Source: an uncultured Chloroflexia bacterium (GTDB lineage: Bacteria; Chloroflexota; Limnocylindria; Limnocylindrales; CSP1-4). Taken from it: a stretch of 64,000 nt of DNA. The position numbers and the translations under genes are program-made. Location: contig CAWHDR010000001.1 in NCBI GenBank assembly GCA_963828165.1, positions 2,528,001 through 2,592,000 of the forward strand. The letters are read 5' to 3'. Below are positions 21,355 to 26,529 of this stretch, one piece after another. Position 1 is the stretch's first letter. Every line of letters starts with the position of its first letter. The notes under the pieces were generated by a model that worked only from the letters and a program-made list of their open reading frames with translations, was not told the origin of the DNA and ran no database searches.

Positions 21355-22398
21355 TCAGTCGCGGGGGTCACCTGTCCGGACGATGGCGATCGCGTTCTCC
21401 AGGCGGAGCTTCGCGATCGTGAGGTACTTCGCGAGGTTGGCCCGGTCGATCTCGGTGATCGAGGCCACGGCATCAGGGGAGCGAAGGACGTCGACCAAGG
21501 CATCGAGTGCCTCGCCCAGGTCCTGCTTGGCGTTGACGAGCGAATCGTCGGTGAGCTCCACGGCCGGCCGGGGTGCCGTCTCCGCGACCGCGGCGTCGTC
21601 ATCGATCTCGAGGTCCACATCGTCGTGGCCAACACCGTTGGTCCCATCGAGCCCGTTGCCATCCGCGCCGATGTCGTCGATGACCCGCACCGGCCGAGAC
21701 CGGCGACCCTCGATCTTGTCGCGGAGCTTGATCAGGGTCAGTTCACCACGAGCGACCTGGTCGGCCAGCCTGCGGCGCTTCTTGGGGTCGTCGACCTTCA
21801 TCAGCTCGTAGGCGTGGGACAGGGTGTCTTTGCGCAAGGACACGAGCTCTCGGATCTCCGGCGGCGCATCGGCGAGCCGGAGCCGGTTCTCGAGGTAGCC
21901 CTTGTCCTTGCCCAGCTTGTCGGCAAGCTTGCGGATGCTGTAGCCGTGTTCCCGGACCATCCGGTCGTACATCGCGGCTTCATCGAGCGGCGAGATGTCC
22001 TCGCGCTGGAGGTTCTCGATGATCGAGATCTCCAGGGCGGTGTCGTCGTCGATCTCCTCGATGAGGGCCGGGATCGTCTCGAGGCCGGCCTGCTTCGAGG
22101 CTCGCCAGCGCCGCTCGCCGGCAACGAGCTGGTAGCGGTTCTGGCCGATGGGTCGGACGAGGATGGGCTGCAGGACGCCGTGCTCGCGGATGGAGGCAGT
22201 CAGCTCGTCGAGCGTCTCCTGGTTGAAGGCGAGTCGCGGCTGCTGCGGGTTGGAGTCGATGCGATCGACCGGAACGATCCGGACGCCGACACTGCGCGTC
22301 GGGGAGTCGTTCGACAGGAGGCTGACGATGGCAGGGGAGAGCTCACGCTCTTCCGACAGGCGACGCGCGGCGGTCGCTCGGAAATCAGGCCGTGCCAA
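21355..22398 (-). CDS. parB: ParB/Spo0J family partition protein
   Basis: [25 protein letters not shown]ase box, ENLQREDI and a central HTH. Confidence 0.93.
21826..21841. repeat. palindrome copy 1 (GTCTTTGCGCAAGGAC), candidate parS
   Basis: One mismatch to GTCTTTGCGCAAAGAC; lies inside parB. Confidence 0.6.
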
Positions 22399-23155
22399 GT
22401 TCGACCACCTCCCGCGCGAGCTCGCGGTACGTACGCGCGGCGTCGCTGCCCCCGGCATAGGTCGTGATGGGGCGTCCCACCAGCGGTGCCTCGCCGAGCT
22501 TCACGGTGTTACGAATGATGCTGCTGAACACGTGGTGATCGCCAACGACCCGGAGCTCGTCGAGCATGTCCCGAGCGAGATTCGTTCGGCCGTCGTAGAA
22601 CGTTGGCAGCAGTCCGAGGATCTTCAGGTCCCGGTTCAGCTTGAGCCGGATCGCGTTGATGACCTTGACGAGGTTCGTCAGGCCCTTCATCGCGTAGTAC
22701 TGGGTCTGGACCGGGATGATCACGCCGTTTGCAGCGACGAGACCATTCACCGTCAGCAACCCGAGGTTCGGCGGGCAATCGATGAGGACGTAGTCGTAGG
22801 CGTCCGCCTGGCCTTCGATCGCGTCACGCAGGATCTGCTCGCGGCCAAGGGCGGTGAAAAGCTCGCCCTCGGTCGATGCCAGGTCGATGTGCGCGGGCGC
22901 GACGTCGATGCCCGCGCTCTCTGTGGGGCGGATGACTTCGGAAAGGGTCGCTCGTCCATCGGCGAGCACGTCAGCCATCGAGCGTTCGACGGTGTTGAGG
23001 TTGATCCCGAGTCCGGCCGTCAGGTTGGCCTGGGGATCCATATCGATGCAGAGGACCCGGAGGCCCTCCTCAGCGAGGGCGCCCGCGAGGTTGATCGCCG
23101 TGGTGGTCTTGCCCACTCCACCCTTCTGATTGGCGATCGCGATCACATTGGTCAC
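22385..23155 (-). CDS. parA: ParA/Soj family ATPase
   Basis: [26 protein letters not shown] and [11 protein letters not shown] motifs. Confidence 0.95.
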
Positions 23156-23259
23156 CAGGGCATCACCTCGAATCATCGGCCGGGCTCGCGCGCTCTGCGG
23201 GCGGTTGGGGCGGGGATGCCGTCATGCTACTCCAGCCCGCGCCCCAGCGAACACGCTGG

Positions 23260-23302
23260 TTATCCACACGGATCGCGAGTTGTTCACCATTTCGGTGGAT
23301 AA
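23260..23302. promoter_or_regulatory. DnaA-box cluster upstream of parA
   Basis: Perfect TTATCCACA at 23260-23268, TTGTTCACC at 23280-23288, reverse TTATCCACC at 23294-23302. Confidence 0.65.
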
Positions 23303-23325
23303 GTAGGACCGTATGATGGGCCACT

Positions 23326-23341
23326 GTCCGTGCACAAAGAC
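23326..23341. repeat. degenerate palindrome copy 2 (GTCCGTGCACAAAGAC)
   Basis: Three mismatches to the consensus; in the parA/pccB intergenic region. Confidence 0.4.
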
Positions 23342-23367
23342 GGCCCACCGCAACGGGAGGATCGGCA

Positions 23368-24913
23368 TTGCCGACGAATGAGGAGCGAGCCGCACGCCTC
23401 GATGCGATGCGAGCGGAGTCGATGCTCGGTGGCGGACAGGAGCGCATCGACCAGCAACATGAGCGCGGAAAGCTCACCGCGCGAGAGCGGTTGGAGCTGC
23501 TGCTCGACGCCGGATCGTTCGTGGAGTTCGACGCATTCGTCACGAATCGCAACCCCGACGCCGAGACCGCGTTCCTCGGGGACGGCGTGGTCACCGGCCA
23601 CGGCAAGATCGACGGGCGGCTCGTCTTCGTGTTCAGCCAGGACTTCACGGTCTTCGGCGGATCGTTGTCCGAGGCGTACGCGGAAAAGATCTGCAAGGTG
23701 ATGGACCTTGCGATGAAGGTCGGAGCACCGATCATCGGGCTCAACGACTCGGGAGGCGCCCGCATCCAGGAGGGCGTCGTGTCGCTCGGTGGGTACGCCG
23801 ACATCTTCCTGCGAAACACGTTGGCCTCGGGTGTCGTACCGCAGTTGTCGCTGGTGATGGGCCCGTGTGCCGGCGGGGCGGTGTACTCCCCGGCGATCAC
23901 CGACTTCACGATCATGGTCGAGGGCACGAGCTACATGTTCGTCACCGGGCCGAACGTCGTGAAGGCCGTCACCCACGAGGACGTCGACGCGGAGACGCTT
24001 GGTGGGGCGACGACCCACACGACGCGCAGCGGGGTTGCGCACATCGCGGCCCACGACGAAGCGGAGGCGCTCGGCTTCGCGCGGCGGATCCTCGGGCACC
24101 TGCCACAGAACAATCTCGACGACGCGCCGCGGGGATCGACGTCGGATCCGATCGATCGGCAGGACGCCGCGCTGGATCGGATCGTCCCGGACGACCCGAG
24201 CAAGCCATACGACATGCATCAGGTCATCGAGCTCGTCGTCGACGACGGCGCATATCCTCGAGATCCAGCCGGGCTGGGCGCCGAACATCCTGACGGGCTT
24301 CGCGCGACTCGGCGGGCGCAGCGTCGGCATCGTCGCGCAGCAGCCAGCGGTCCTTGCCGGCGCGCTGGACATCGACGCCTCGACGAAGGCGGCACGGTTC
24401 GTCCGGACCTGCGACTGCTTCAACGTGCCGATCATCACCTTGGTCGACGTGCCGGGTTTCATGCCGGGCGTCGGTCAGGAACACGGCGGGATCATCCGTC
24501 ACGGAGCCAAGCTGCTGTACGCCTACTGCGAGGCGACCGTCCCCAAGCTGACGGTGATCACGCGCAAGGCCTACGGCGGCGCGTACGACGTCATGTCCAG
24601 CAAACATGTTCGCGGCGACATCAACCTGGCGTGGCCCACTGCGGAGATCGCCGTGATGGGCGCAGAGGGCGCGGTCAACATCCTCCACCGCGACACGATC
24701 GCGGCCGCCGCGGACCCGGCTGCCGAGCGCGCCAGGCTCGTTGCCGACTACGAGGAGCGTTTCGCCAACCCATATGCCGCCGCGGCTCGCGGCTACGTCG
24801 ATGACGTCATCAGGCCGTCGGAGACTCGGCCACGGCTCATCGCCGCGCTGGAGATGCTGGCCGACAAGCGCGACACGAATCCACCGAAGAAGCACGGCAA
24901 CATCCCGCTGTGA
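23368..24913 (+). CDS. pccB: acyl-CoA (propionyl-CoA) carboxylase carboxyltransferase subunit, apparent frameshift near 24255
   Basis: [18 protein letters not shown] and [12 protein letters not shown] motifs. Continues in the +1 frame with [14 protein letters not shown] and KKHGNIPL. Confidence 0.92.
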
Positions 24914-26529
24914 CCGCGCCTTCGCGGACGGTGGGGGAGGCCGCGTCTTTGCGCAAAGACGGAGCCCGACCGTTTGTGCGGATCCTCGTCGCGAACCGGG
25001 GAGAGATCGCCCTTCGCATCATTCGCACCTGTCGCGATCTCGGCATAGAGACCGTCGCGGTTTTCTCGGACGCTGATTCCCAAGCGGCTCACGTCGGGGC
25101 GGCCGACTCGGCCGTGCGCCTGGGCCCGGCGCCGGCGACGGAGAGCTACCTTCGCGCCGACGCGATCGTCGAGGCCGCCCTCTCGACGGGTGCCGAGGCG
25201 ATCCACCCCGGCTACGGGTTCTTGTCGGAACGCGCGGCGTTCGCGCGGGCGGTGATCGACGCCGGTCTGACGTTCATCGGACCGGCGCCCGACGCGATCG
25301 ATGCCCTCGGGGACAAGCTGACGGCACGCCGGACGGCGAAGGATGCCGGCGTCCCGGTGGTGCCGGGGACGTACGAGGCCGCGGCTGTCGATCGACCCGA
25401 CGAGGCGGCAGCTGTCGTCGCGGCGGCCGAGGACGTCGGCTTTCCGTTGCTCGTGAAAGCCTCGGCGGGCGGCGGGGGCCGGGGCATGCGACGCGTCACG
25501 AGAGCGGCGGATCTGCCAGCCGCGTTGGCGGCGGGGGCGGCGGAGGCGCTTGCGGCATTCGGCGATGGCGCGGTCTACCTCGAGCGGGAGGTACGCCCGG
25601 CTCGCCATATCGAGGTGCAACTGCTCGGCGACGCGGACGGCACGATCGTGGCCCTCGGGGAGCGCGATTGCTCGATCCAGCGCCGACACCAGAAGCTCGT
25701 GGAGGAATCACCGGCGCCCGGACTGTCACCAGACGAACGAGCCGAGCTGCACGATCTCGCCATCCGCGCTGCGGTCGCGGCGAAGCTCCACAACGCCGCG
25801 ACGGCCGAGTTCCTCTTCGACACCGACCGGCGGTTCTGGTTCCTGGAGGTCAACGCGCGCCTCCAGGTCGAGCACGGGGTGACCGAGCTCGTGACGGACC
25901 TCGACCTTGTCGCAGAACAGCTGTGGATCGCGGCGGGGGCACCGTTGTCGGAGGCGGTCCTGACCGCGGCGGCGAATGCGCTGACCCCGACCCGCCACGC
26001 CATCGAGGTCCGGCTGGCCGCCGAGGATCCGGCCCGCGAATTCGCACCGTCGCCGGGACGCGTGGGGGAGTGGCGGATGCCATCGGGTCCCGGGGTTCGC
26101 GTGGACACGGCGCTCCGTGCGGGGGAGCGCGTGCCGCCCGACTACGATCCGTTGATCGCCAAGATCATGACGGTCGCCCCCGACCGGGGAAGCGCCATCG
26201 ACCGGATGCGGAGGGCGCTGGACGAAGTCGCCGTGACCGGCATCCAGACGACCCTACCATTCGATCGCGCGCTCATGCGCGACCGGGCCTTTGCCGCGGG
26301 CGACCTATCGACGGGCTGGGTGGAGGCGCGCTGGGACGGCGAGACGCGCCGGTCCGAAGCGTTGACACGGGCTGCCCGGGCCGCGGCAGGCGCCGCCGAT
26401 GCGGTGCTCGTCGAAGGTGCCAGGTCCGCCGCGCAAGCGGAGAAGGACCCGTCTTTGCGCAAAGACGGCAGCCCGTCGGCCTGGCGGGACGCTGGCCGCC
26501 AGGCCGCGGCCGATCGCTGGCCTCGATGA
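24910..26529 (+). CDS. biotin carboxylase subunit
   Basis: [37 protein letters not shown] and [12 protein letters not shown] motifs. Confidence 0.95.
24944..24961. repeat. palindrome copy 3 (CGTCTTTGCGCAAAGACG), candidate parS
   Basis: Perfect 18-bp palindrome in the N-terminal extension of the biotin carboxylase gene. Confidence 0.7.
26449..26468. repeat. palindrome copy 4 (CCGTCTTTGCGCAAAGACGG), candidate parS
   Basis: Perfect 20-bp palindrome in the C-terminal linker of the biotin carboxylase gene. Confidence 0.7.

Follow-up and report, generated by a model that had tools for sequence, protein, structure and literature searches.

Among the DNA partition systems closest to the locus described here, the canonical ParABS systems (Soj/Spo0J of Bacillus subtilis and ParAB-parS of Caulobacter) consist of a parA-parB operon, a few 16-bp palindromic sites (parS), and a ParB protein with a ParB_N domain and a helix-turn-helix (HTH) fold. 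To our knowledge, the known chromosomal parS sites function near oriC. Noc of Bacilli is a ParB paralogue with altered specificity residues and its own 16-bp palindrome, the Noc-binding site (NBS); its sites are scattered and it has no ParA partner (PMC12704722). In Burkholderia cenocepacia (chromosome 2) and Vibrio cholerae (ParAB2-parS2), the cell contains an additional, orthogonal ParABS. The subject of this work is a parA-parB operon (parAB2) and four copies of a 16-bp palindrome found in a 64-kb stretch of DNA (64,000 nucleotides, hereafter the window) on contig C1 of an uncultured bacterium, whose named relatives place its lineage in the Chloroflexota. We propose that the palindrome is probably the cognate site (parS2) of an intact second type I ParABS on the main chromosome, about 140 degrees from oriC. 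The candidate site is new, and its position is unusual and conserved.

Like the canonical systems in operon structure, number and length of sites, and ParB fold, parAB2 differs from them in 10 of the 16 site positions, in the four specificity residues, in its distance from dnaA (1.31 Mb), and in the presence of a separate canonical system. The site also differs from the NBS at 10 of 16 positions; a preliminary description of this DNA had called the motif unlike both known consensus sequences. In addition, Noc sites are scattered, no ParA is associated with them, and the Noc residues are Q-K-K-R, whereas here the sites are clustered, parA2 is adjacent, and the residues are K-R-D-S. The second systems of Burkholderia and Vibrio adjoin the origin of a separate replicon, whereas in 13 genomes of the present class a single contig carries both systems. 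Among printed sites, the nearest is the parS of B. cenocepacia chromosome II (PMC7022226), which differs at 4 of 16 positions and has the GCGC core in common, a comparison that concerns the sites only; the B. cenocepacia system likewise has a parS inside parB (PMC4948915).

The palindrome cluster and its partition genes

The four copies, to which no strand is assigned, are located between positions 21826 and 26466 of the window. Copy 1 (21826..21841, one mismatch) is within parB2 just past the recognition helix, where it encodes S-L-R-K-D in frame, in likeness to the parS inside spo0J of B. subtilis; copy 2 (23326..23341, three mismatches) is in the divergent parA2/pccB intergenic region; copy 3 (24945..24960, perfect) is at the pccB/accC junction in a variable 5' extension of accC; and copy 4 (26451..26466, perfect), which only some relatives have, is in the variable 3' end of accC. 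All four positions and their mismatch counts, as claimed in the preliminary description, were reproduced by a window scan, and the claimed extension of the perfect copies is seen in the sequence: copy 3 extends to a perfect palindrome of 18 bp and copy 4 to one of 20 bp, and copy 1 is a 20-bp palindrome with one mismatch. At ≤3 mismatches these are the only matches in the window, compared to an expected mean of 0.13, and none of 100 shuffled sequences reached four. In the whole 3.31-Mb genome three sites have ≤2 mismatches, all inside the parAB2 cluster, and six sites, copy 2 among them, have exactly three mismatches; the parAB2 cluster is the sole such cluster in the genome.

The distances between the successive copies are 1500, 1619, and 1506 bp and relatives show similar spacing, probably because the copies occupy gene junctions. 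A related but different palindrome at C1:49535, 5' of an open reading frame (ORF) that looks ArsR-like by eye, recurs in its perfect form in five same-genus genomes and is probably a separate operator.

parB2 (21355..22398, minus strand) encodes a protein of about 347 amino acids with a ParB_N domain and a helical C-terminal domain, and its TTG start overlaps the stop codon of parA2 (22385..23176, minus strand, likely start GTG at 23155), which encodes an ATPase with an intact Walker-A motif. ParB2 scores above cut-off in PF02195, PF17762, and TIGR00180; ParA2 matches PF13614 (E = 8e-63) and is 49% identical to the origin-linked ParA1 of the same genome. The Walker motifs are kept in ParA2 (KGGVGKTT is invariant in 20 orthologues), parA2 is intact and next to parB2 in 37 of 40 loci, and the AGERR box of ParB2, of the GxxRxxA-type that binds cytidine triphosphate (CTP), is invariant in 32 orthologues. 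The features of a type I ParABS, i.e. a Walker-A parA in the operon, the ParB domain set, and a clustered, linked palindrome (loci of families f2, f3, and f5 excepted), are found together. A ParB2 model predicted with an alignment (pLDDT 79; the single-sequence fold reached only pLDDT 58) resembles ParB and Noc structures, and the helical C-terminal domain, modelled at pLDDT ~90, may be a dimerisation domain.

Specificity is switched by four positions, which read RTAG in ParB and QKKR in Noc (PMC7383237); there ParB2 has K166/R172/D177/S194 (K-R-D-S) and ParB1, the product of the other parB in the genome, has R-T-E-G. ParB2 differs at all four positions and would therefore be expected to recognize a different DNA site. 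In place of R173 and G201, the hallmarks of a canonical ParB, which ParB1 has, ParB2 carries K and S. Its scores are 145 bits against Noc and 139 bits against ParB, and its closest solved sequences are Noc; on the NCBIfam noc model TIGR04285 it scores 187 versus a cut-off of 315 and thus falls short of a Noc assignment. It is very probable that ParB2 binds the palindrome.

Conservation of the site at parAB2

In the same genus 24/24 genomes carry 2-4 copies at ≤1 mismatch (reversed control, 0). An unbiased palindrome search covering 40 loci of up to 20 kb ranked the half-site first, with at least two copies, in 14/14 loci of the same family (f1) and 11/11 loci of family f4. The preliminary description had counted absence of the motif near orthologous parAB loci as a refutation; it is present there in these two families but not in f2, f3, and f5 (see below). 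Dispersal of the kind seen with repetitive extragenic palindromes or transcription factor sites was not found, since 63 of the 69 sites in 19 f1 genomes are ≤10 kb from parB2; five of the six beyond 10 kb represent one different palindrome. In the consensus of 142 half-sites, G1, T2, C3, and T6 are invariant, and a copy at ≤2 mismatches is present within 450 bp upstream of parA2 in 12/14 f1 and 11/11 f4 loci. Conservation at the pccB/accC junction is 80-100% over the 16 positions and 30-65% in the flanks (20 relatives' loci). The codons that make up the in-parB2 copy were counted in 25 parB2 genes, which are kin and not independent: Lys is AAA in 19/24 cases versus 12/351 elsewhere, Leu is TTG in 12/15 versus 34/936, and Ser is TCT in 10/24 versus 5/411. 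This enrichment of rare codons shows that the DNA word, and not the peptide alone, is under selection.

Three of the four window copies flank or sit in the propionyl-CoA (pcc) genes, and the same 16-mer is dispersed in phages that lack ParB. Both facts would suit an operator of an unrelated transcription factor, e.g. of the pccB-accC-mutase operon, whose proximity to parAB2 is incidental. However, genomes G062, G053, and G155 give no pccB match and yet have two sites each at parAB2, and genomes G151 and G044 have pccB on contigs without any site, so that the site tracks parAB2 and is separable from the pcc genes. Together with the selected copy inside the parB2 coding region and site matches outside the class that are no more frequent than those of the control (10 vs 11 of 353 genomes), this makes an unrelated operator highly improbable. 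Multi-copy matches outside the class in G581 and G428 were rejected, both compared loci being within one repeated 1.26-kb element that resembles an insertion sequence.

Two partition systems and their distance from dnaA

The genome has two ParB_N genes. parAB1, a neighbour of gyrB/gyrA at C1:1.273 Mb, is 35 kb from dnaA and is immediately preceded by a canonical parS; parAB2 (C1:2.55 Mb) is separated from dnaA by 1.31 Mb and lacks the origin proximity of a canonical chromosomal ParABS. The preliminary description had found no canonical parS, which is correct for the window, but the genome holds one (one mismatch) at C1:1274373, upstream of parAB1. Its suggestion of a centromere-like site of a ParABS with a non-consensus parS is supported by the sequence tests, but the framing has changed to that of a second system beside a canonical parABS. 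Gene orientation switches near 1.1 Mb and is plus-biased onward through 2.9 Mb, which makes the dnaA region the most likely place of oriC. Neither GC skew nor fourfold-site skew is strong enough here to place the origin or terminus, and octamer skew is consistent with a switch near 1.1-1.2 Mb in a fit that presupposed that switch.

ParB2 matches better than 1e-70 were found in 194 of 200 genomes of the class, a tally that takes in three genomes marked as unpublished; none of the individual claims depends on these. In a phylum sample searched with the HTH and C-terminal part, 48/48 class members matched at <1e-37, and outside the class 10/353 genomes gave weak matches. Canonical parS is present in 34/36 genomes. 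The second system appears to be fixed on the main chromosome in the class, which belongs to the Chloroflexota and is probably Limnocylindria. dnaA and parB2 are on one contig in 13 genomes (from 30 searched plus the source genome; three are single-contig assemblies), and in 13/13 the two genes are 0.35-0.42 genome lengths apart (mean 0.39), on either side of dnaA; in six of these the shorter path crosses a contig end (one single-contig assembly and five with rounded genome sizes). ParB1 is within about 20-55 kb of dnaA in the genomes measured.

A late-replicating position may also be occupied by a landmark rather than a cargo, i.e. ParB2-parS2 would mark the locus and ParA2 would place or time the division machinery (MipZ-, PomZ- or Noc-like) with no DNA being moved. 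The division and cell wall (dcw) cluster (mraZ, ftsI, a murF-type ligase, mraY, ftsW, murB, ftsA, ftsZ) is at 41641-58575, 15-32 kb from the last site, dcw homologues are near parAB2 in two f3 genomes, and the closest solved sequences are those of Noc. We consider this explanation quite unlikely: Noc has no ParA partner (PMC12704722), the similarity of ParB2 to Noc is marginally above that to ParB and below the TIGR04285 cut-off, ParA2 has a far better score with the Soj-type AAA_31 model than with MipZ, and gene neighbourhood is weak evidence.

Upstream of parA2 there is a perfect DnaA box (23260..23268, plus strand), one of two perfect boxes on C1, and 34 bp from it a second box with one mismatch (23294..23302, minus strand). 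A box in this place is found in 14/14 f1 loci (a pair in 13) and 11/11 f4 loci, and upstream of dnaA no box was detected at ≤2 mismatches. These boxes, along with the plasmid-borne relatives of ParB2, could be the mark of a chromid or plasmid that has been fused, of which this locus would be the origin region and still a (secondary) DnaA-dependent origin, with the palindromes as its centromere. Such an origin is very unlikely at this locus, because gene orientation does not switch at 2.55 Mb and is plus-biased from 2.0 to 2.9 Mb, the f3 and f5 loci have no boxes upstream of parA2 (0/10), and no initiator of its own was found on what is the same contig as dnaA (no Rep, integrase or transposase among the scanned window ORFs, and no iteron array in 19.5-28 kb); GC skew is too weak to decide.

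Several further features were observed. In f4 (loci L073-L083) the upstream palindrome copy precedes the DnaA box that remains, starting exactly 34 bp from it, at the position of the first box of f1. The dnaA-dnaN gap has degenerate boxes only and the lowest G+C nearby, and the highest-scoring DnaA-box cluster of C1 is at C1:2017135-2017209, far from dnaA. The end of C1 overlaps contig C6, which overlaps the start of contig C5; C5 has two tyrosine recombinases and probably holds part of the terminus region. Divergent from parAB2 are pccB, accC, a biotin carrier gene, methylmalonyl-CoA mutase, and a glyoxalase-fold gene that is probably the epimerase. pccB (23368-24913) is frameshifted near 24250 into two Carboxyl_trans halves and smc at C1:2766841 is split likewise, both probably as a result of assembly indels. 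The window also contains dnaG-rpoD (5741-9432), a class A RNase P RNA (39425-39800), and tRNAs at 12464-12535 and 59989-60062.

Relatives, exceptions and proposed role

In a ParB tree (42 of 107 rows kept, unrooted), the class ParB2 proteins form one clade (99/99) and the canonical ParBs, including ParB1, form another (97/88); ParB2 and ParB1 as a single clade were rejected (p-AU 0.002). ParB2 groups with Chloroflexota proteins that have an R-x-D-T motif (76/72), and at this support in a tree without a root a plasmid donor of ParB2 is something we infer. A repeated 14-18 bp palindrome is present near parAB in 8 of 13 distinct relative loci (one doubtful, inside another annotated gene); the five loci without it are contigs <5.5 kb. 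One relative, known by sequence, is on a circular plasmid of Ca. Chlorohelix allophototropha (NZ_CP128402.1), with the helix GKDKSYIENRL, R-x-D-T after the helix, and two perfect palindromes right after parB. Its palindromes have the outer GTCT...AGAC arms of the site described here, as do those of the two other relatives of most similar helix, L113 (five copies) and L114 (three copies), but it is plasmid-borne and the core of its palindrome is different (6/16 positions differ). L116 and L118, with small helix changes, have unlike palindromes. Scans of metagenome and viral proteins with alignment A1 gave mostly generic ParBs. In the full texts searched, neither this sequence, the f3 and plasmid variants, nor a second parAB in the class was found; a listing in supplements or subscription papers is possible.

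The sister ParBs P0036, P0046, P0048, P0066, and P0070 repeat a short peptide in the variable linker. The peptide is VSGRPDT, which P0044 and P0127 have at the post-helix position as well, or, in the case of P0066, SLRKDT (two times); this suggests that further parS copies may be written into parB genes.

The recognition helix of ParB2 is nearly invariant across the class, families f2, f3, and f5 included. In f3 a two-base variant of the palindrome is exact in 9/61 genomes and directly follows a UvrD-like helicase-nuclease gene in 8/15 loci, as does the f5 site; in the two f3 genomes where it could be measured, the variant shares a contig with parAB2, at distances of 47 and 54 kb from it. A recurrent match in f2, the small-genome family, was discounted, being probably driven by the coding sequence of the long ORF that contains it. 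Another f2 match, in an intergenic position, is present in 7/13 genomes with ParA2 and 0/13 without, and is given little weight because the two groups are subclades. The exact 16-mer also occurs in 30 IMG/VR stretches, and phage contigs G585 and G586 have two exact copies 230 bp apart.

A number of these and other results weigh against a second ParABS with this site. No site was found within 10 kb of parAB2 in 9 f3, one f5, and five f2 loci (0/15), nor did a de novo search reveal a shared palindrome at parAB2 in these families. At ≤2 mismatches the f3 variant is present in 41/61 genomes versus 24/61 for the control, and in just 4/13 genomes of genus g20. In f2 a ParA2 match is found in 13 of 26 genomes and in none of the other 13, and no convincing site cluster was found. 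The complete 116-kb phage G583 has 17 dispersed copies of the palindrome and no ParB_N or HTH_ParB match, so that linkage to a ParB is not needed for the word to occur; the phage may rely on the ParB of its host or on a repressor of another kind. The LG[KR]GL motif for ParA binding, as defined in PMC12704722, is absent from ParB2. The locus is ~0.11 genome short of the dnaA antipode and a dif-like pattern gave just one poor match in the genome, and the label 'terminus-linked' is consequently not established.

ParB2 could also bind the site and act in a local, CTP-dependent way as a regulator or an organiser of chromatin (KorB/VirB/BisD-like), repressing its own operon and its neighbours and moving no locus. 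parB2 and the promoter region of parA2 do contain copies, some members of the small-genome family retain ParB2 in the absence of ParA2, and V. cholerae parAB2 is autorepressed by ParB through parS (PMC3141006). We regard this as unlikely in view of the 37/40 loci with an intact, adjacent parA2, the f3 variant sites 47-54 kb from parAB2 after a helicase gene, and the constant distance from oriC on either side, which would not be expected of a mere autoregulator.

Clustering, conservation, selection at the DNA level, intact ParA and ParB motifs, two systems per contig, and a conserved distance are all apparent from sequence comparison by itself, and a positioning role of ParB2, given that it binds, appears likely. 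ParB2 dimers would read the two half-sites via a recognition surface unlike that of canonical ParB; by analogy with known ParBs, CTP would presumably close the ParB2 clamp, which would spread from 2-6 clustered sites. Coupling to ParA2 would presumably take place through an N-terminal peptide of ParB2, which is conserved, differs from LG[KR]GL, and is lost together with parA2 in 3/3 parA2-less loci (one subclade); a predicted complex of a ParA2 dimer with ParB2 residues 1-34 (score 0.01, mark 0.32) is counted neither way. At a late point of the replication cycle ParA2 would then position the sister loci that have been replicated, with no dependence on ParAB1-parS1 at the origin. Autorepression probably results in addition from the copies that lie within parB2 and 5' of parA2, and the DnaA boxes may couple parAB2 expression to the cell cycle.

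A wider, more tentative possibility, to which we give slightly less than an even chance, is that two orthogonal working centromere systems exist on one chromosome throughout the class, the canonical one at the origin, and that a domesticated plasmid-type ParABS actively positions a late-replicating locus. As part of the same possibility, this system would be part of a subfamily of Chloroflexota ParBs whose sites and recognition surfaces have diversified in concert, the site often being inside parB. These would be natural ParB/site pairs beyond ParB-parS and Noc-NBS for specificity studies, and a candidate orthogonal ParB/parS label. In Pseudomonas aeruginosa, parS put 1-1.5 Mb from oriC could not be propagated (PMC5098823). 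If true, a conserved second ParABS at ~0.39 genome would constitute natural segregation of a late region by a Par machine, and would bear on how late-replicating DNA is handled in bacteria without a known terminus organiser. It suggests that a second point of the chromosome may be actively handled in the source bacterium and in most of the sampled relatives.

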